Below the pieces are notes generated by a model, which was not told the origin of the DNA, did not search any database, and saw only the letters and a list, made by a program, of their open reading frames with translations. A stretch of 64,000 nucleotides of DNA, taken from positions 1 through 64,000 of IMG/VR virus record IMGVR_UViG_3300046056_000003, one strand, 5' to 3'. Positions 2,888-44,732 of the stretch are shown one piece after another. The position numbers and the translations under genes are program-made. Position 1 is the stretch's first letter, and each line of letters starts with the position of its first letter. The stretch comes from a virus.

Positions 2888-4472
2888 ATCTAACGTCTTT
2901 GCAATGCGGACCTCTGGAGGGTCCGTAAAGGTCGTTTTCGAGGGACAACACTACCTCAAGACCGAGAACGCCGATGAGATTTATGCGGCGGCGCAGCAGC
3001 TTCGAAAAAAGGACACCGAAGAATACCGCGAGCGCCTTCGCAACCTTCTTGATCCCCACTACCGCGAGGTGGTCATGAGTGACCTTGAGCGGGACAACCT
3101 GGGCAACCTGTACCTGGAAGGGTTCAATCAGCCCCTGGGCGAAGGCATGGTCAGTCTGATCGAAGAGCACCACGAGCAGGACCTGCCTACCGCTCCCTTC
3201 AAGGAGTTCTGGAAGCGTCTCCAGCTCAATCCCAACCAGAAGGCGCGGGAGGACTTCTTTGAGTACGTGCGGGACTTCGGCCTCACCATTACGGATGAGG
3301 GCTACGTCATCCTGTACAAGGCCGTTGACCGCAATCCTCACGCGGATCTGGACAACGACCTCGTAGAGTTTGTCGGCCAGGAGTACCTCAAACACCAAGT
3401 CTCCCGGTCGAACCCCAATCCGGAAGATGTCTTCGTCGTAGAAGACGAGGACGGGGAGTACGCCATCGTTGAGGAGGAGGCTACGTCCACGGTTCCTCCC
3501 ATCGAAGACGACGTGGACTTCCTGAACGTCGGTGATCTTTCGGTGACCAACCTCCTCGAAGAGGCAAAAGCTCGGGGTATTGTCGATCAGATCAACGGTC
3601 TCGAATTTCGCTTCGAGGGCATTGACCACGTGCTCGGCCACCTCAAGGATGATGACCCGGACGCCTATCCTCTTCCCGACATTCGGGATGCCCTTCGTAA
3701 AGAGGTGATGTGCCCGAAGGATGTCGTTCTTGCAGATTTCGAGGACGACCCCCGCACCCTGCTTCCCGTCATGAAGCATGAGGGCGTGATTAACGACTAC
3801 GAGTTTCAAGGCATCAACAAGGTGTCCGTTACCAGGGACGGACGTTCTGTCCTCTTGGATAGCCTTGAGAACACAAAGATGGGTGACCGCATGGCCGAGG
3901 ATCTTGCGGCTGCTCGCCCAGACCTCGTGGATCCGACGCCGGATACCACGGAGCTGGAGTATCACGGCACCCTTGCCGAGATGTACACGCTCATCGTGGA
4001 GTCCTCCGATGCTCAGTTCCAGCCCTGGTATGAGGGGGGCGAGTACGGCAACGAGATTGACCTTGGGGAAATGATCTCCATGCCCCGTGAAGAGTGCGAT
4101 CCCAACAGCAACGTCGCTTGCTCTCAGGGCCTTCACGTCGGCAGCCACAAGTACGTCGAGTCCTTCGGCTCCAACATGGACGTGATCCTTGCCTGCGTAG
4201 TCAGTCCACGGGATATTGTGGCGCTACCAGACCGGGACCACAGCAAGGTGCGCTTCTGCCGCTACCTTCCCTACGCGACCATGGAGCGGAATGACGACGG
4301 CTCCTGGGAGGAGATCGAGGCCGTTCAAGTGTCTACCCATCGGTTGGAGGACGACTTCGACTACGGTGGGGCACTTGAGAACCTCGAAAACCAGGAGGAC
4401 CTGAGCGACGTGCAGCAGGATCGGAAGAAGATCCTCGAAGAGCGGGTCCAGCAGCTCCACACAGCGGAGTAA
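2880..4472 (+). CDS. rIIB: rIIB-like protein
   Basis: The C-terminal block ACSQGLHVGSHKYVESFGSNMDVILACVVSPRDIVALPDRDHSKVRFCRY parallels the T4 rIIB C-terminus as I recall it (CSRGLHV.S..Y...FG......V.V.PRDVV.IP.DY...K.R.C.Y). The ATG at 2880 overlaps the rIIA stop (ATGGATAG). Confidence 0.75.
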   Translation: MDRSNVFAMRTSGGSVKVVFEGQHYLKTENADEIYAAAQQLRKKDTEEYRERLRNLLDPHYREVVMSDLERDNLGNLYLEGFNQPLGEGMVSLIEEHHEQDLPTAPFKEFWKRLQLNPNQKAREDFFEYVRDFGLTITDEGYVILYKAVDRNPHADLDNDLVEFVGQEYLKHQVSRSNPNPEDVFVVEDEDGEYAIVEEEATSTVPPIEDDVDFLNVGDLSVTNLLEEAKARGIVDQINGLEFRFEGIDHVLGHLKDDDPDAYPLPDIRDALRKEVMCPKDVVLADFEDDPRTLLPVMKHEGVINDYEFQGINKVSVTRDGRSVLLDSLENTKMGDRMAEDLAAARPDLVDPTPDTTELEYHGTLAEMYTLIVESSDAQFQPWYEGGEYGNEIDLGEMISMPREECDPNSNVACSQGLHVGSHKYVESFGSNMDVILACVVSPRDIVALPDRDHSKVRFCRYLPYATMERNDDGSWEEIEAVQVSTHRLEDDFDYGGALENLENQEDLSDVQQDRKKILEERVQQLHTAE

Positions 4473-4512
4473 GACCGTCTGGAAGCGGTCAGAGGGTGCA
4501 AAAATACTGGAA

Positions 4513-4540
4513 GGGAAGGGCCGTTTGATGGGCCCTTCCC
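4513..4540 (+). terminator. hairpin GGGAAGGGCC-gtttgatg-GGCCCTTCCC after rIIB
   Basis: Perfect 10-bp stem with an 8-nt loop, 41 nt after the rIIB stop. The downstream T-tract is weak. Confidence 0.4.
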
Positions 4541-4548
4541 TGTCCAGT

Positions 4549-4575
4549 CCCTTTACCAACAGTCACAACCAGCAA
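4549..4575 (+). promoter_or_regulatory. conserved G-poor leader motif copy (CCCTTTACCAACAGTCACAACCAGCAA)
   Basis: Near-identical to the copies abutting the ATGs at 48538, 58604 and 61100 on the other strand. It is preceded by CCAGTCCCTTT, which also occurs at 379-389. Confidence 0.4.
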
Positions 4576-4641
4576 AGAAGCGACTATTGGATTTTTCTAT
4601 ATAGGGGCCGCCCCTTGGAAGTTCAAGCTGCCCCGATAAAC

Positions 4642-4680
4642 CCCTTTACTGTCAACTTATTATTCACAACCAACGTTTTC
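4642..4680 (+). promoter_or_regulatory. leader motif variant directly 5' of mazG ATG (CCCTTTACTGTCAAC...CACAACCAACGTTTTC)
   Basis: It has the same CCCTTTAC...CAAC...ACAACCA architecture and ends at the start codon at 4681. Confidence 0.35.
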
Positions 4681-5214
4681 ATGATTAGCGACGAGATTAG
4701 CTCTGTATCCGACTACGTAAAGGCGACTTCTCGCACCTGGAGCAACGAGTTCCACGAGCACCTCCTGGAAGGCCGTGCTCTGGCCGTCGATATGGAAGAG
4801 GTGGCTGATCATCTGGACACCTTCTTAGACGACGCAAAGAAAGCCCTCTTCTACGGAGACGAGGAGACCAGCCGAAAGGAGTGCATAGACTATCTTCTCT
4901 CCAACTGCTTCAAGAGCGAGAAGCAGAAGTACATCCTCCACGCAGCCCTGGGGATCGCCACCGAAGCCGGCGAAATCCTTGAAGCTGTGTCTGCCCGTTT
5001 TATGGGAAACGACATTGACCTCGTCAATCTTTCTGAGGAGATCGGGGACCTCCTGTACTACGTGGCTCGGCTTGCCGATGCCATCGGTGTAGACCTTCTT
5101 GAGGTGATGAAAACCAACATTGAAAAGCTTGAAGAGCGATTTCCCGAAGAGTTCAGTCAGGAGGATGCCCTAAACCGCGACCGAGACCAGGAGCGAGAGG
5201 TTCTGGAATCCTAA
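4681..5214 (+). CDS. mazG: MazG-like nucleoside triphosphate pyrophosphohydrolase
   Basis: ALGIATEAGEILEAV...EEIGDLLYYVARLADAIGVDLLEVMKTNIEKLEERFP is the MazG EXXE / E..GD..wY helical signature. I chose the start at the ATG that follows the leader motif. Confidence 0.8.
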   Translation: MISDEISSVSDYVKATSRTWSNEFHEHLLEGRALAVDMEEVADHLDTFLDDAKKALFYGDEETSRKECIDYLLSNCFKSEKQKYILHAALGIATEAGEILEAVSARFMGNDIDLVNLSEEIGDLLYYVARLADAIGVDLLEVMKTNIEKLEERFPEEFSQEDALNRDRDQEREVLES

Positions 5215-13680: not shown

Positions 13681-14613
13681 TCAAGAGTATTGATACATCG
13701 ACTTCATGTGCCTGTAGGCTTCCGCCTGAATTACCGTTCCAGACTGATTTGGATTTTGCCTCTTGGCCTTCTCTACGGCCTTCTCATGGAGGGAATCGAT
13801 GGTCTCTGAATCGAGGCTATCGATTTCCTCCTGTGAGAGGTCAGACATGAACATGCTAGTCACGTCTACGTCGGGGGCCTCTGTCCGGTCCTCGATTTTC
13901 GTCGTTTCTTGGGGCTGGTCTCTGTCAGAGTGAATGAAAAACTTGATCCGCTTGGCGGCCTGGCCTTCCCGCTCGACGTCGTAGGTGAACGAGATGTCGG
14001 TCTTTTTGCCGATCTCTTTCCGGGCTTTGCTGATGACGTGGTATTTGAGTTGGCTAAAAGCGGAGTAGGACTCTTCGATGCCCAGAATGTCTCTCAGCTC
14101 CTCGACACTTATTCGAAGAATAGAAATGCCCTCCCGCATTTTCAGCAGCTCGTAGATCCGCATCGAGTACGTAGACCGGAGAGGAAGGAAGTGTCCAGCC
14201 TCGTACATCGTAAATCTCCGCTTGAGTTGAAGGAGGTAGGGCTTCATCTCCTCGTTGAACTTCGCCTCGATGTAGCCATCTCCCTCTTTGTACTTACAAC
14301 GGTTCATCAGATTTATGCCGTCGTAGACCCGCTTCCCGTTTTCTTCGGTTTTGATTTCGAGCTTTTTGTCGAGAAGACTAGAGCAGATGTCTTCTGCCCG
14401 GTGGTAGAGGGATTCATCACTGAAGTCAGAACGGTCCATTAACTCTTGAAGATGGAGCTTTTGGTAGCCAAACTCCCGGTCGTCCTTGTCCAGTTGGGAA
14501 ATGAGCACTCCGATGATTCGATGCTCCATCCTGGACAGGGGCATCTTTGCTTGAACCAGCTTGTTGGCCTTGACGATCATGTGGCCCGTGGAGGAGTCTT
14601 CATTTCCCATCAT
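13681..14613 (-). CDS. rep: plasmid-type replication initiator, Rep_3/RepB-like
   Basis: The N-terminus MIVKANKLVQAKMPLSRMEHRIIGVLISQLDKDD matches the Rep_3 hallmark (v.k.N.Li.a.y.Lsl.E.rli...isql). The size is 310 aa and the iteron array lies immediately upstream. Confidence 0.75.
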   Translation of the reverse strand: MMGNEDSSTGHMIVKANKLVQAKMPLSRMEHRIIGVLISQLDKDDREFGYQKLHLQELMDRSDFSDESLYHRAEDICSSLLDKKLEIKTEENGKRVYDGINLMNRCKYKEGDGYIEAKFNEEMKPYLLQLKRRFTMYEAGHFLPLRSTYSMRIYELLKMREGISILRISVEELRDILGIEESYSAFSQLKYHVISKARKEIGKKTDISFTYDVEREGQAAKRIKFFIHSDRDQPQETTKIEDRTEAPDVDVTSMFMSDLSQEEIDSLDSETIDSLHEKAVEKAKRQNPNQSGTVIQAEAYRHMKSMYQYS

Positions 14614-14948: not shown

Positions 14949-15230
14949 TCAAGAATCTTCAACCTCGAACACACCGGGCACCTCGTACTCACCATTCTCT
15001 TCTTCCAGGCCCTCGACGAGGCTTCTCACGGCATGGTTAACCAAGTCCGCCATGGAGACGTCTTCCTCGTGGCTGATGGTTTTCAGTTTCTCTTTGAGGC
15101 CCGCGTTTAGGTTGGTCGCGTAGGAAATGCGATCTCGATCCTGGAAGCTGTCTAAACCTTCCTTGACGCTTCCTAGATCATATCCGGAGTCTTGATCGAA
15201 ATCGACGCTCATCTTGGACTGTTTGCTCAT
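14949..15230 (-). CDS. ribbon-helix-helix partition/centromere-binding protein (ParG-like)
   Basis: RISYATNLNAGLKEKLKTISHEEDVSMADLVNHAVRSLVEGL fits an RHH fold. It has an ATGA overlap with parA upstream, and its 93-aa size is typical of type Ib partners. Confidence 0.6.
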   Translation of the reverse strand: MSKQSKMSVDFDQDSGYDLGSVKEGLDSFQDRDRISYATNLNAGLKEKLKTISHEEDVSMADLVNHAVRSLVEGLEEENGEYEVPGVFEVEDS

Positions 15231-15943
15231 AGCCGCTGTTGGATTTCGTTTGCAAGAGACTCGTAGTCTTCGGTGGCCGTGGCATCGGGGGAATAGGAGG
15301 GAGGCGGGGTTCCTTCCGCTTCTGCTTCCTTTACCTGAACGGTATTTCGGATGAAGGTGTCGAAGGCCCGGTCCTCGAAGTTCTCTTTGAGGATTCCCGG
15401 CATTTCTCTATCGTTGACCGTACGGAGATCCACTTTACACGCGAAGGCTCCCTCAAAGCGGCTCTGAAAGTCGTTCACGAGGTATATCGTGTCCGTGAGA
15501 CCGTCAATGGCCCCTTGTCCCGTCTGGACTGGTGCTATTACGGCGTCTGAGGCAACGAGAGAGGCAATTACAAGGAAGCCCGTCGAGGGAGGGGGATCGA
15601 TAAGGCATACGTCGTAGCTCTTTCTAGCCACGCTTAGAAGCTTCTCAAGCCTCTGGACAATCTTTTTCACGGGCCTGGACTCCAACGTTGCCAGAGAACG
15701 ATCGGAGGGCACCACGTCAAATCCCCATTCTGTGCCTACCGCAGCATCGGGAGCACCCATATCACCGCTTAGAAAGGACATACATCGGCTCTGAGGCGAG
15801 GCTATCCACCTGGATAGACTGGCCTGGGGGTCCATGTCTACGGCGAGCACGTCGAACTCACGCGACCACAGGTCGGCGAGACTGACCACGGAGGTCGTCT
15901 TTCCGGTCCCGCCCTTCTGATTGAGGAGAGAGAGGGTATTCAT
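15227..15943 (-). CDS. parA: ParA-family partition ATPase (deviant Walker A)
   Basis: LLNQKGGTGKTTSVVSLA (KGG.GKT deviant Walker A), a later VLAVDMDPQ (Walker A'), and VCLIDPPPS (Walker B-like). 238 aa. Confidence 0.85.
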   Translation of the reverse strand: MNTLSLLNQKGGTGKTTSVVSLADLWSREFDVLAVDMDPQASLSRWIASPQSRCMSFLSGDMGAPDAAVGTEWGFDVVPSDRSLATLESRPVKKIVQRLEKLLSVARKSYDVCLIDPPPSTGFLVIASLVASDAVIAPVQTGQGAIDGLTDTIYLVNDFQSRFEGAFACKVDLRTVNDREMPGILKENFEDRAFDTFIRNTVQVKEAEAEGTPPPSYSPDATATEDYESLANEIQQRL

Positions 15944-17071: not shown

Positions 17072-17427
17072 TGAACTACCCCCTGAAGGATCGGCATCTC
17101 TATCGCATCAACGGGAGGAAGGGGGAACTCGGGATTTTCCTTTCGGGGTCCACACGGCGTTTTGTAACCACGGCCTGCAAGTACGGCCACTTTAGTCTTG
17201 CCGTCGTGGTCCACCGCGAAGACCACGACCGCCATGGGACTGCTCTTCCGGTAAGACCGATGCTCGACAACGTCCCCGACTTCCGGATGCAATCCCAGTT
17301 CCGGGTCCACACCGACGATCATGCCAGAGTACTGAGCTTTCTCAAAACCAGTCTTCTGGAGCATCAGCGGAAGGTGGGCCCGAATTACCTCTCCCAAGAT
17401 AGGGATCCGTTTATAGAAGCTTCTCAA
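16987..17427 (-). CDS. stand-alone LexA/UmuD-like (peptidase S24-like) domain protein
   Basis: It runs parallel to the LexA C-terminal domain. RIPILGEVIRAHLPL matches LPLVGRVAAGEPLL. YSGM matches SGMSM. VGDVVEHRS...MAVVVFAVDHDGKTKVAVL matches DGDLLAVHK..GQVVVARIDDEVTVKRL. ENPEFPLPPVD matches ENSEFKPIVVD. It has a TTG start and no HTH domain. The 3' end overlaps the convergent gene by 85 nt. Confidence 0.4.
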   Translation of the reverse strand: MRSFYKRIPILGEVIRAHLPLMLQKTGFEKAQYSGMIVGVDPELGLHPEVGDVVEHRSYRKSSPMAVVVFAVDHDGKTKVAVLAGRGYKTPCGPRKENPEFPLPPVDAIEMPILQGVVHQLCWGFWLLVAASTMLSSKSSKLSSTF

Positions 17428-17548
17428 TCGTATTTATAGTATTCACAATGGACGGGCCATGATGGCTGTTTTTCAGCCAGACTTGAAAACGGACAGTTGA
17501 AGCGCCAATACAACGCTTTCGCCTCCCCAGAGCGAGATCTGGGGATCC

Positions 17549-17620
17549 TGTGGAGTAGTTCAGTGGCAGAACATCCGGCTGTTACCCGGAAAGTCAGTGG
17601 TTCGAATCCACTCTCCACAG
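17549..17620 (+). tRNA. tRNA-Asn (anticodon GTT)
   Basis: Folded by hand. Acceptor TGTGGAG/CTCCACA (7 bp); D arm GTTC-agtggca-GAAC; anticodon arm TCCGG-ctGTTac-CCGGA; variable loop aagtc; T arm AGTGG-ttcgaat-CCACT; discriminator G. CCA is not encoded. Confidence 0.9.
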
Positions 17621-17682
17621 CCTCTCAATCGCAGCGCAGTTGCGACAAGGCAACCCTCCATCGTGAGTGAGGTCTGAACACT

Positions 17683-18214
17683 GGGGGTGACACGGTTTCG
17701 ACAGAAGCCAACTGATCTCCTTCCACGACCAGAGCACGCCTTACAGACTCTCTTAAATCTCAGTGTGAGGAACCATAGTTGGCACCGTTGTCAACTTCGA
17801 GGATGAGACGGCCTCCATCGCCGATGAGGCCATGGACCGTCTTGCGGAGACCGAAGAGGTCTTCGCGGAAGAGAAGGATGCCCTGGCCGCTTTGGGGTAA
17901 TCCGATAGGTTGGGCCTTGCCCAACCTGCCTCCATTCCAGTCTTGACACCGATAGACAATCGGCCTTACTCGCTCCTAAGTAGATGGCTTTCATCTTGAT
18001 GGAAGACATCGTGATGGGAGAAGGTGTACGGTCGAGTGCTGGAGTGACATTTATCGGTCGATCCCCGAGTTCTTCACGTACAGGGAAAGCAACGTGACTT
18101 GGAGCACCCTGCTCAAGGTCCGGTCCAAGTAAAAAACCACATTGCGCATGGTCGTGACCCATGGACAGAGTGACGGGCTTTTGGACGCGAGTTCGACTCT
18201 CGCCACCTCCACCA
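17683..18214 (+). ncRNA. ssrA: tmRNA (ssrA-like), about 532 nt, with a 39-codon tag frame at 17781-17900
   Basis: The 5' end GGGGGTGACACGGTTTCGAC pairs with 3' CACCTCC, including a G3-U pair. The T arm is GCGAG-ttcgact-CTCGC and ACCA is encoded. AATCTCAGT...ATAGTT precedes the resume codon GGC at 17781. The frame ends ...GCC CTG GCC GCT TTG GGG TAA, followed by the helix GGTTGGGC/GCCCAACC. Confidence 0.85.
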
Positions 18215-18259
18215 CTATCCGCCAAAACCCACCTGTAACACGAAGTAACGGCAGTACCT

Positions 18260-42800: not shown

Positions 42801-44732
42801 CGAAGAATCCCAGCCCCCGTCAAGACTTCCGCTCTCGTAGTCATTGCTGTTGTTAACCGCCCCTACGGAAAAAGAAGCGTTGTACTTGTTTCCAATCTGG
42901 TCGGCCTCGATCGTGAGGGTTCCATCTCCGTTGTCCGTGGCGGTAAACTTGTCGGTGAAGTTCGAATTGTTGCCCAAGGCAGTCATGTAGGCGGAGGCCA
43001 CCGTAGCGGCGCTATCCTGCCCGTTGACTGTTACGGGTGTCGTAACATTGTTTCCGTCATAGGCCACCAGAATTTCTCTATCTTCCGGTCCATCATCATC
43101 TTTTCCTCCGTCAACGGTGGTGCTATTAGTGGTGTAGTTGAAGTCCGCACTGCTGACAATTTCGATTCCGTACCCGTTCCACTGAGCCCCGGTACTCAGT
43201 GCGATCATGCTCATCGAATAGCCTCCCGTATCGTAGTTATAGGCCCCTTGTAGATCGAAGTCGTTTCCGAAATGTCCGTTTTCCAGTACCGTCTCGATAT
43301 TGTTGGCAATCTCGTCTTCGCTATCTCCAGACGTGTAATTCACCGTGTAGGTCTCGATGACATTTCCACTATCGTCCCGGTATTCAATGTCTACACTGCC
43401 ATCGGAAGAAGCCCCCGATGTGAGAGTAAACATTCCACTTCTGGCCTTTTCTCCCTGGCCGGGAACGTCCGAACAGGTGATAGTGCCTTCGGACTTGGCG
43501 TCGTCGGGATCAGGGGCTGCATCATCAATTGTGATCGAGGCCTCTCCTTTTAGGGTCCCGGTTCCCCCCTCTGCCCGTCGCCCAGGGATGTGAAAGGCTT
43601 CCGTTTCAGTTCCGTCTTCCAGGACGAAGCTGACGTAGAAGGCGTACACCTCTCCCCGCTTGAAAGTCTTGAGGTTGAAAGCCGCTTCGGTATTGAGGAG
43701 ATCATTTCGGTTTTCGGTGGCCTCATAAGCGTCATTGGTATAGTTCGACAGGATGGCCTTCTCGTGCTCCTGTTGAAAGGTTACCCCAATGTCATTGACG
43801 TGACGCTGGAGGTCTACCCGGTCTTCTTTTTCCAGGTTGCCCATGTACAGGGTCCCGTCCTGCTGCTCGATGGTTCGGGCGCGGCTGTAGGTCTCCTGAT
43901 CAACAATGACCTCGTCTAAGGTGCCGTCCACCGAGGATTCGTTTCCGGTATAGCTATACTTGAGGGTTCCAGAATCCGGAATGGGAATGTCCGGAAGAAT
44001 GTCTACCGTGGTCCCATGGACGGCCACCACGCGGAGACTCTCGTATTCGGTATCGAGATTCTCCAGGGTGAAGTCAATTTTCCGGCCTGTTTTCTCGTCG
44101 GGGTCCTCCCCAAACCCTTCCTGGTTGGAGATGGGAATGGGTCTGGTGGTCTTGAAGTAGTTCGTTACCGACTCATCAGAATTGATGTAGGCGAACGCAA
44201 GCTGGTAGGTCCCACCGAAAAGACTCCCTCCCGCCTTCGAGACATAGTCCAGCTTAAAGTCTGTCTTGGTGTTAATGACGGGAAAGAGACGAAGGGACTG
44301 AAGCTTGTTTGGGGGCCCGTCCTGAAGGGTCTTGTCGACGTTGAGAAGACGAGGGGGATTGGCATCGTCGGTCAAGTAAACCACCCGGTCTCCGTTGGAA
44401 AGCACCCGGTACACCGATTCGACGTACTCGCCAAAGCTAATATCCTCCTCGAAGTCTTCGTCGCTGAGAACAGAAGTGAGGGATTCGGATTCGGGATCCC
44501 AGATTTTGATGTGGTCTGTCGAATCCCCCTTGACAAAAAGAAGAAAGGCGTTGTTCGAAAACTCTTTCCAGCCGATGATGTCCCCGCCAACATCGGTTCT
44601 CAATGAAGGCCCTCGTTCCCGACGCAGCTCTCCGTCTTCGGTGCCGATAATCGCATTTCGGGCGTCCCTGTAGCTTCCATCGGGCTGAAGCCGGGGATCG
44701 ACGTCTCTCTGAAGTCCTTTGTTGAACGGCAT
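39852..44732 (-). CDS. giant tail nozzle protein, T7 gp12 (tail tubular protein B)-like, 1626 aa
   Basis: The N-terminus NKGLQRDVDPRLQPDGSYRDARN resembles gp12 LKGGISQQPDILRYPDQGSRQVN. The late motif EQWVSFHDLDPG resembles gp12 QSWSHWDFG. This rests on my recollection of the T7 sequence. Confidence 0.45.
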   Translation of the reverse strand: MPFNKGLQRDVDPRLQPDGSYRDARNAIIGTEDGELRRERGPSLRTDVGGDIIGWKEFSNNAFLLFVKGDSTDHIKIWDPESESLTSVLSDEDFEEDISFGEYVESVYRVLSNGDRVVYLTDDANPPRLLNVDKTLQDGPPNKLQSLRLFPVINTKTDFKLDYVSKAGGSLFGGTYQLAFAYINSDESVTNYFKTTRPIPISNQEGFGEDPDEKTGRKIDFTLENLDTEYESLRVVAVHGTTVDILPDIPIPDSGTLKYSYTGNESSVDGTLDEVIVDQETYSRARTIEQQDGTLYMGNLEKEDRVDLQRHVNDIGVTFQQEHEKAILSNYTNDAYEATENRNDLLNTEAAFNLKTFKRGEVYAFYVSFVLEDGTETEAFHIPGRRAEGGTGTLKGEASITIDDAAPDPDDAKSEGTITCSDVPGQGEKARSGMFTLTSGASSDGSVDIEYRDDSGNVIETYTVNYTSGDSEDEIANNIETVLENGHFGNDFDLQGAYNYDTGGYSMSMIALSTGAQWNGYGIEIVSSADFNYTTNSTTVDGGKDDDGPEDREILVAYDGNNVTTPVTVNGQDSAATVASAYMTALGNNSNFTDKFTATDNGDGTLTIEADQIGNKYNASFSVGAVNNSNDYESGSLDGGWDSSTDKISVEADWVPSTTEFITFEVAPGASAQTVADKLFTESQNNAGYDDITFTQNTTTITATDDTGTDRFNGDTPYFDSAFSFSLTIEDWEGGGGSGNELSEIPDSHPLKEYESEFGTLRNFHVNPSTSSLSTGFWQNENESYPDNQRWDVVDDSGDVVDNYRGENVRHHRILGNDEMPYVDEDSQFGLTDPTIIQVSFNNIHIPDELEGKIKSARFYYARKDPEDRLIMDQSLGHQGWHDDSDNERPYQQTNSIFSSDVWAAHGFPPTTYFFDEKRWDVDGNLFELQPFESLRRNLPLQGITHVKEVLRITKDDDWYGVFTEDVGSVWWKDGTLNISSHNLITKVEAISYIDQNQRSVSLESQGFTRDYDNLFGESKVVCETEKGFFLDSLHVLDLCQLKKDVHFPFDQQELVYTGIEKDMSTGRSVVQKAIGAGDIHVARWWHKEHTLLALADPDFWGQGDSWWGGNHDENNIKNALLWTIHREIFGQNEDEDERNGVVSAIQELIGNTADVNNLPLAIGTTWFQCNETRDLPTMGRVPGESRDETFAPIQEIFGKSEASWVSQPPVGALPNKFDQLDDTEEAKAKTRWFFRFFRDVDNWYKYNDLYSEDARLKPAFPFQEKAISSTNFPTRVIRSAESKEGGPRTAWREFRPEDKTDLPQNRGAIQKLVASTNGLTIHAEDALFRTKGRQQMDIQGDSVYLGSGNIFRVKPQQLRQSEAGFAGLSHPTHGISTPWGYVWVDIENQTVYQWGNEGPKSISRKGLRQWFQSHIGTDIEIGVDPEEERVFVSGSDWTLSYNPLREQWVSFHDLDPGKYFFGRDKGHLFRNDNIYTIGEGQYGNYYGSIHPFEVAFVSADRRPENQIVQSLYIDASVFDDAGRELERKIFDSVRVYNDYQDTGEIIIRPLIGDRGQRRNRVNARKTDRVWKINNLRDGIAQPTRRSDLSRLSDNVHHIELSFGKATDQRTIHLLNALLVHRSSRR

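Follow-up and report, generated by a model that had tools for sequence, protein, structure and literature searches.

What does a bacteriophage gain from a transfer-messenger RNA (tmRNA) of its own, and what becomes of the polypeptide chains that such an RNA would tag? The role of phage tmRNAs is still guesswork, and only a few percent of phages encode one (402 of 18,146 genomes, about 2.3%; PMC9004378). They are known in Bxz1-like mycobacteriophages and in Bacillus phage G (PMC4131195), are also carried by huge phages (PMC7162821), and in mycobacteriophage Wildcat the tmRNA is the lytic gene with the highest expression (PMC7474061). The question is raised again by a locus at 17683-18214 of the IMG/VR virus record IMGVR_UViG_3300046056_000003, of which we analyzed a stretch of 64,000 nucleotides (positions 1 to 64,000; hereafter the window). 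A preliminary description of this DNA had proposed a complete tmRNA with an over-long, very acidic tag frame and had seen in it a new kind of host-translation takeover. Our analysis favors the view that the locus specifies a functional one-piece tmRNA with an expanded version of the canonical tag, encoded by a crAss-like phage, a reading that we hold to be rather probable though far from certain.

The RNA itself is readily recognized. The Rfam covariance model RF00023 matches the plus strand at 17683-18214, the very coordinates first proposed, with 73.7 bits against a gathering threshold of 47 (E 9.2e-27), and it does so over its full length (model positions 1-374), as expected of a complete one-piece tmRNA gene (ssrA), here of 532 nt. 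Homologous tmRNAs lie in two diverged relatives, L121 (IMG/VR 3300021446_000035; 4437-4955, 519 nt, 76.4 bits) and L128/L129 (ERZ27230169, SRR6651928; L128:367-931, 565 nt, 79.9 bits). The 5' end of the window RNA reads GGGGGUGA..GGUUUCGAC, and the 5' half of its tRNA-like domain (17683-17702) comprises the acceptor strand GGGGGUG together with GGUUUCGAC. Seven base pairs (GGGGGUG/CACCUCC) make up the acceptor stem and include the G3-U pair of alanine identity; pairs 1-7 with 571-577 of the alignment of homologues (A3) are invariant, and the G-U is found at position 3 in 3/3 homologues. The 3' half (18187-18214), delineated like the 5' half from sequence and covariance alignment, supplies the T arm GCGAG/UUCGACU/CUCGC, the strand CACCUCC, a discriminator A and an encoded CCA, and thus the encoded ACCA already noticed in the preliminary description. 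A compensatory G-C to C-G change marks the T stem of L121 (pair 554-570).

Between the two halves, covariance alignment and consensus fold place pseudoknot 1 at 17731-17770 (AGAGC..CUUACAG..CUCU..UGUGAGG), which ends 10 nt before the resume codon, at the spacing of about 10-12 nt looked for in tmRNAs. Its helix 57-63/82-88 is part of the consensus fold and carries a U-G to C-G change in L128. Folding and consensus fold agree on two hairpins around and after the stop codon (17876-17926). The first (17876-17903) resembles helix 5 and is predicted to hold the stop codon in its 3' strand, at the end of a frame of 39 codons as compared with 9-15 in most tmRNAs that we saw, and the second (GGUUGGGC-CUU-GCCCAACC, 17908-17926) shows a U-A to C-G change in L128 (pair 229-241). 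There follows an enlarged pseudoknot domain (17927-18165), about 190 nt beyond the Rfam consensus, which appears as a 187-nt insert in the covariance alignment. Two other readings of this architecture were examined and rejected, namely that the tmRNA is split or permuted and that the enlarged pseudoknot domain houses an intron or an open reading frame (ORF).

Several features of the RNA point to the tag frame. Covariance alignment puts the resume codon of the RF00023 model onto GGC 17781 at the top posterior probability, and the sequence UAGUU just upstream (17776-17780) aligns with AAUAAuU of the model. In Escherichia coli an A four bases before the resume codon sets the frame (PMC2481249); the equivalent of E. 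coli A86 in the window is A17777, which lies four bases upstream of GGC and follows the same spacing rule. The fold and the resume codon first put forward were thus upheld by Rfam and not by ARAGORN, which called no tmRNA at 17683-18214. From GGC the frame (17781-17900) runs for 39 codons to TAA (17898-17900) and translates as GTVVNFEDETASIADEAMDRLAETEEVFAEEKDALAALG, a peptide with a net charge of -10 that ends in ALAALG, in agreement with the preliminary description. Its C-terminal stretch (...A-GTVVNFEDETASIADEAMDR / LAETEEVFAEEK / DALAALG) gives the peptides to be expected in mass spectrometry. The C-terminal L/M/V-A-A-COOH of a ClpXP-type degron is absent, the tag closing with ALAALG in the window and with ALAVLG in L121 and L128.

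Comparison with 9-residue cellular tags suggests that this peptide may be dissected into a GTVVNF start (compare GNYNY), an acidic in-frame expansion of 27 codons (EDETASIADEAMDRLAETEEVFAEEKD, 17799-17879), the motif ALAA (17880-17891) and the two extra codons UUG GGG for LG (17892-17897). Folding predicts a pair of stable hairpins for the RNA of the 27-codon insert (17805-17843 and 17844-17866). Elsewhere in the window the insert has no paralogue, and the tag peptide matched nothing in PDB or Pfam. AlphaFold, run on the single sequence, models the peptide as one helix spanning residues 6-38, with a mean pLDDT of 87. The pre-resume sequence and the resume codon are themselves predicted to pair with tag codons 3-6 (AGUUGGCA/UGUCAACU) in a hairpin (17777-17796) with a stem that all three sequences preserve and a loop that reads CCGU in the window and CUCU in the relatives. 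Pairings of 8 bp of the same sort (UAUAGUUG/CAACUAUG) are predicted in the resume regions of some cellular tmRNAs of the FCB type discussed below (L131, L136 and L140), and a helix at this site has been proposed for E. coli tmRNA (PMC1168896).

The two relatives show which parts of the RNA are held constant and which parts are free to change. L121 and L128 encode one and the same 39-codon tag, GTLVNFEDETASIADEAMDRLAETEEVFAEEQDALAVLG, which ends in ALAVLG (GCC CUG GCC GUU CUG GGG), and the stop falls at the same codon in all three sequences, as TAG in L121 and as TAA in L128 and the window. Because both relatives read ALAVLG, it is the LG ending that is conserved and not the canonical ALAA, which the preliminary description had noted in the window tag. 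Among the three homologues the tag frame varies at 5 of 117 sites (4.3%) and has no indels or gap columns, and it is therefore about as conserved as the 5' core of the RNA (3.1% variable sites, 0 gap columns). Variability rises to 9.5% in the pseudoknot domain (63 gap columns), 11.6% in the 3' part (0 gap columns) and 30% in the stop and helix-5 region (2 gap columns). Overall identity of the tmRNA across the relatives is 90-95%, and compensatory changes are seen in the T stem, in the post-stop hairpin and in the pseudoknot domain, the last of which is plastic whereas the tag frame has no indels. The tmRNA, including its long template, is under purifying selection. Length differences in the pseudoknot domain include a 47-nt insertion in L128 (L128:635-681), which looks like a tandem duplication of the adjoining ATAG(A/G)(C/T)AATCGGCCTT, and a 15-nt insertion at 17985-18007 of the window relative to L121 and L128.

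Further members of this family proved hard to find. A blastn search of the tmRNA region against 50,697 phage records returned matches to the tRNA-Asn only and none to the tmRNA, and a strict family pattern recovered nothing from JGI metagenome contigs in two attempts. A more generic 5' pattern applied to viral contigs retrieved mainly permuted tmRNAs of the alphaproteobacterial type. The neighboring proteins are as rare. Four homologues of the 177-aa neighbor were the only ones among 5.8 billion proteins, and the 1161-aa neighbor has three, of which two distant ones lie on short contigs without a tmRNA. Scans of IMG/VR with either protein retrieved one and the same contig.

The surroundings of the gene are those of a phage. 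The window encodes rIIA, rIIB, ribonucleotide reductase (RNR), a Rep3-type initiator, ParA and an SbcD-like nuclease, together with structural proteins that include a Crassvirus muzzle protein and tail ring proteins 1, 2 and 3/4, and on its minus strand it has a block of giant ORFs that range from 1161 to 2534 aa. The GenBank phages closest to it by muzzle protein (23% identity) belong to the crAss-like phages of Bacteroides, Flavobacterium and Cellulophaga. Structural and replication genes of the crAss-like type stand on both sides of the tmRNA, and base composition is even across the window. By gene content the element is an uncultivated crAss-like (Crassvirales-type) phage, and because of this affiliation, which is the single ground for the assignment, its host probably belongs to the Bacteroidota. 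A host chromosome with a prophage at ssrA was ruled out by the flanking phage genes, the uniform composition and the conservation of the locus in related phage contigs.

The immediate neighbor of the tmRNA, 60 nt upstream, is a tRNA-Asn (anticodon GTT; 17549-17622, plus strand) called by both ARAGORN and Rfam (RF00005, 70.6 bits), as the preliminary description had held, and the same pairing of tRNA and tmRNA recurs in L121 and L128. The two RNAs are probably transcribed together. A scan for sigma-70 promoters and terminators around the tmRNA gave nothing convincing, with a tool that does not cover promoters of the Bacteroidota type. The only candidate that we saw for the shared leader motif of the preliminary description was TCTCAATCG, at 17422-17430 and 17623-17631; two copies are not above chance (33 of 100 shuffles). 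This sequence flanks the tRNA-Asn closely on both sides and has no further copy in the window. Two ORFs overlap the tmRNA, one of 144 aa (17791-18225, minus strand) and one of 55 aa (17779-17946, plus strand); both are most likely spurious, and automatic pipelines could mis-annotate them as genes. Some 2-4 kb upstream of the tRNA/tmRNA pair lie, within this crAss-like genome, a Rep3-type plasmid replication initiator (13684-14613, minus strand; Rep3_N 3.6e-35, and Rep3_C) and a ParA/MinD-type ATPase (15230-15943, minus strand), which hint at a plasmid-like maintenance, either as a carrier state or as a phage-plasmid.

Cellular tmRNAs offer a standard against which the long tag can be judged. 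Those with the same 5' motif and the resume context AUARUU-GGC are found chiefly in Zixibacteria, Bacteroidia and Ignavibacteria, members of the Fibrobacterota-Chlorobi-Bacteroidota (FCB) group, and carry for the most part 9-residue tags such as GESNYAMAA, GNYNYAMAA and GENNYALAA. The first residue of these tags is always Gly, and 12 of the 13 tags called in this set end in AA, which agrees with the preliminary description, where Bacteroidota tags are given as short and ending in ALAA, although AMAA is found as well. The FCB-group tmRNAs agree with the window RNA in their 5' tRNA-like motif and pre-resume sequence, resume at a Gly codon, start the tag G-x-x-N-Y/F and could likewise pair around the resume codon. 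However, their tags have 8-9 residues and end in AMAA or ALAA, their RNAs measure 355-380 nt as opposed to 532 nt, and they all lack both the 27-codon insertion and the LG extension. A permissive global alignment of the window RNA with these tmRNAs gave 0.69-0.75 identity at aligned positions for all of them and is uninformative on kinship or host. The strict family pattern had no match in a collection of 185,579 species, each represented by one genome, so that hosts normally carrying a long ...ALAALG tag, which would have made the phage copy unexceptional, were not found in that collection. Note that two contigs of the genome collection, L142 (Legionellales UBA7366) and L143 (uncultured bacterium), which may be cellular or prophage, combine the same AUAAUUGGC resume context with long tags, GKTKATKRVAANDARFAEVAKAA and GKTSLIDYANKALAGVIDKTLYATA; long tags would therefore not be exclusive to phages.

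Other phages provide closer parallels. The tmRNA of Bxz1 and the cluster C mycobacteriophages is, like that of the window, phage-borne among tRNA genes, one-piece and long (435 nt; listed on the tmRNA Website). The Bxz1 gene lies inside the phage tRNA cluster, and its tag, ATDTDATVTDAEIEAFFAEEAAALV, has 25 residues and a charge of -7, ends in ALV and is thus also long, strongly acidic and without a terminal AA. Close to its C-terminus each of the two tags carries the motif (E)xFAEE..A(L)A.L. In contrast, there is no detectable nucleotide similarity between the two RNAs, host phylum and phage family differ, the resume codon specifies Ala in Bxz1 and Gly in the window, the window tag is longer and more acidic (39 aa, charge -10) and ends in Gly, and ARAGORN recognizes the Bxz1 tag and not the window gene.

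Phages of Bacteroidota extend the comparison. In Cellulophaga phage phi14:2 (KC821624; Crassvirales, Steigviridae) we found a tmRNA at L150:4031-4502 with 46.0 bits, against a threshold of 47, and the Rfam alignment gives it the 38-residue tag GNDTDNTQLKANMTVVHNILNGSDALIGSSVQKLAMVA, which ends in LAMVA. The ARAGORN tag for this gene has 11 residues and is the in-frame tail of the 38-codon frame, the Rfam resume codon being 27 codons further upstream. Calle_1 (MT732432, L155), a Cellulophaga phage unrelated to phi14:2, has a 30-residue tag, GNNTNAVNAQIEANMEAVNAILNLEVAVGV, ending in AVGV. There is good evidence from sequence comparison that these long phage tags are truly read, because in both phages the other two frames close within 4-12 codons and because the tags have in common ANM..V.N.ILN with synonymous differences. 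The phages phi14:2 and Calle_1/phi38:1 (Pervagoviridae) resemble the window phage in infecting Bacteroidota, in the Gly resume codon and in long frames with non-canonical ends, and phi14:2 is crAss-like as well, but their tags are unrelated to that of the window and not acidic (charges -1 and -3), their genomes are AT-rich and the gene occupies another genome position. Their tmRNAs are poorly handled by automatic annotation. The GenBank record of phi14:2 leaves the gene unannotated under the small 'hypothetical protein' ORFs gp012-gp014 (L150:4000-4519), and the annotated tmRNA of Calle_1 (43002-43361) is about 50 nt off the Rfam match (42950-43311).

Long tags were also seen on viral contigs, namely in L039 (567-933; 37 residues, ending QFAYA), L126 (1662-1977, minus strand; 26 residues, LLATV), L148 and L149 (28 residues, VAIAA), and L078 and L110 (28-29 residues, VALAA), although some of these contigs could be host flanks of prophages. 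Many other tmRNAs of viral contigs have ordinary ALAA tags of 10-15 residues, and all tags called by ARAGORN on the 126 viral loci scanned end in AA. The window's 22-nt 5' pattern recurs in one-piece tmRNAs of about 305-310 nt on four viral contigs of 78-190 kb (L034, L038, L049 and L109). Their tags are of the ANDDVENFEDFALAA type, and both V-x-NFED and AAYTTCGAGGA reappear where the window tag begins, which could mean a distant relationship or a coincidence.

Taken together, the window gene shares with the known long-tag phage tmRNAs a location in a phage genome next to a tRNA gene and a tag of at least 25 residues without an AA end, and the tags are unrelated save for the short FAEE motif in common with Bxz1. 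Judged by sequence, the likeness is one of kind and not of descent. No other example that we found is as long or as acidic as the window tag, and no other ends in Gly. Long non-canonical tags recur in phages and are already in the databases. Because phage tmRNAs are known and tags that are long and lack LAA occur in Bxz1, phi14:2, Calle_1, L126 and L039, some of them acidic, the 'new kind of host-translation takeover' was an overstatement; the window RNA is probably a real and functional phage tmRNA that represents an extreme member of an under-described variant class. Furthermore, ARAGORN, on which most phage surveys rely, misses or mis-calls several long-tag tmRNAs that Rfam finds (the window, L121, L128, L126, L039 and phi14:2), and consequently counts of phage tmRNAs and lists of tags that are based on ARAGORN are biased toward canonical tags.

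How would such an RNA act in the infected cell? By homology with all tmRNAs, the phage RNA would be charged with alanine by the host alanyl-tRNA synthetase (AlaRS) through its G3-U pair, would bind host SmpB and EF-Tu, and would enter stalled ribosomes. Translation would resume at GGC 17781 and the ribosome would be released at TAA 17898, a rescue that could leave the translation machinery of the host at the disposal of the phage, for instance where mRNAs or tRNAs are cut by host or defense nucleases. Rescued chains would acquire in vivo the 39-residue acidic tag with its modeled alpha-helix, a peptide about four times the length of a cellular tag because of the 27-codon insertion and the LG by which the canonical tag appears to have been expanded. 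The ClpX protein of E. coli reads a C-terminal LAA-COOH. Because the tag lacks this end, the fate of the rescued products would most likely differ from that of host-tagged ones, with slower degradation, degradation by another protease, or none; an escape from ClpXP would follow if the E. coli ClpX rules apply in the host, although other proteases might still recognize the non-polar ...ALG terminus as a degron. A precedent for a changed protease without lost degradation is given by Mycoplasma, whose long tmRNA tags (of 27 residues in M. pneumoniae, with a different C-terminus) are thought to be adapted to Lon in organisms that lack ClpXP (PMC8403727). These are, however, tags of cells and not of phages; they have no sequence relationship to the window tag and do not share its kind of acidity, and a comparable link to a protease in the window phage would be conjecture.

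Several observations weigh against a functional tmRNA whose long peptide matters. Diverged relatives with the tRNA-Asn and tmRNA pair number only two, that is, three distinct sequences with the window. No SmpB or protease family was matched among the 47 window ORFs (the window being about two thirds of the 96-kb contig). Given the base composition, chance would produce a 39-codon open frame with P about 0.20. The predicted 8-bp hairpin at 17777-17796 encloses both the resume codon and A17777, and in E. coli stabilizing a helix at this site is reported to be harmful (PMC2481249). The proportions of synonymous (pS) and nonsynonymous (pN) differences carry no coding-specific signature. In the adjacent gene pS is 0.24-0.39 and pN 0.05-0.09 among the relatives (0.386 and 0.087 for the window versus L128), whereas in the tag frame pS is 0.073 (2/27.3 sites) and pN 0.033 (3/89.7 sites). 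Two synonymous differences were thus seen between the window and L128 when about 10.5 were expected (P 0.0003), and the synonymous sites of the tag are about five-fold more conserved than those of the adjacent gene (P 0.0003-0.005). Moreover, the region 17765-17945 is predicted to form a row of hairpins (-81.5 kcal/mol, z -4.1). Four of the six substitutions in frame and stop fall in predicted loops or bulges, one of the remaining two turns a G-U into a G-C pair and the other breaks a doubtful long-range pair; the chance that at least 4 of 6 fall in the 27% unpaired columns is about 0.05. Because of the placement of substitutions, the low pS and the strong fold, selection at the RNA level could explain the conservation. 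A constraint on nucleotides or on structure accounts for it at least as well as one on the peptide, the two being inseparable with three sequences, and the conservation of the tag appears not to be specifically coding, its signal lying at the level of nucleotides or structure.

These data lend themselves to a different account, the main rival, in which the tmRNA serves mainly as a device for rescue or release, or as a competitor for SmpB, EF-Tu or AlaRS, and the peptide is irrelevant. The 81-nt expansion would then be a set of hairpins selected as RNA, for instance for stability against host RNases, for folding or to control access to the resume codon, and the frame would stay open largely by chance or by weak selection against stops. 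We regard this as somewhat unlikely, although a tag-frame pS far below that of the neighboring gene (pN/pS about 0.45), the strong fold of the tag region and substitutions that mostly fall in loops or preserve pairing all agree with it. An in-phase, stop-free insert of 27 codons would arise by chance at about 0.33 x 1/3, and in E. coli the tag template is replaceable and the identity of the tag is not needed for phage growth (PMC2481249). It fits less well with phi14:2 and Calle_1, in which no frame but the long one is open and the amino-acid sequence is conserved with synonymous changes. Nor does it account for a window frame that begins and ends with canonical tag elements (GxxxNF ... ALAA), for a stop kept at the same codon despite the change between TAA and TAG, or for 117 nt without an indel in an RNA that has many elsewhere.

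The frame and the gene could each be misjudged in other ways. The gene could be a passenger or a decaying copy of a host ssrA, acquired for example by integration at the host tmRNA gene, whose tag drifted after loss of the original stop. It is true that ssrA is a common prophage attachment site and that fragments of it occur in phages (PMC9004378), and that the end GCU-UUG-GGG-UAA resembles GCU-UAA with six bases inserted. However, the gene is full length with both tRNA-like halves, is 90-95% conserved across phages whose adjacent-gene pS reaches 0.39, shows compensatory changes and has no cellular counterpart in the 185,579 species genomes; no integrase family was matched among the 47 window ORFs in Pfam. 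Together these points make a passenger or decaying copy very unlikely. Resumption in another frame, for instance at GCA 17782 to yield a basic peptide of 54 residues, or some other product, is barely plausible. GCA (Ala) is the commonest resume codon of tmRNAs, and the frame from 17779 is open for 55 codons, but the covariance alignment sets GGC with high posterior probability, A17777 lies exactly four bases upstream of G17781, the tags of AUARUUGGC cellular tmRNAs all start with Gly, and a motif of the ALAA type closes the GGC frame alone.

The reading of the window RNA as a functional phage tmRNA with an expanded tag invites a generalization that is unlikely as it stands but can be put to the test. 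Phage tmRNAs may constitute a functionally distinct class whose tags have been repeatedly lengthened and have lost the LAA degron in Crassvirales, Pervagoviridae, cluster C mycobacteriophages and several uncultivated phages. Rescued chains would then be released without ClpXP, or be marked by a helical acidic peptide for some other, possibly phage-controlled, fate, and the window RNA would be the most extreme case.

The value of the locus consequently lies less in the single gene than in this testable generalization, that phage tmRNAs avoid the host degron, and in the blind spot that it exposes in ARAGORN-based surveys. If phage tags are systematically long and without a ClpX degron, the phage copy would be more than an extra capacity for rescue. 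The fate of truncated proteins in the infected cell would be changed, a prediction that could be tested by reporter tagging and protease assays.

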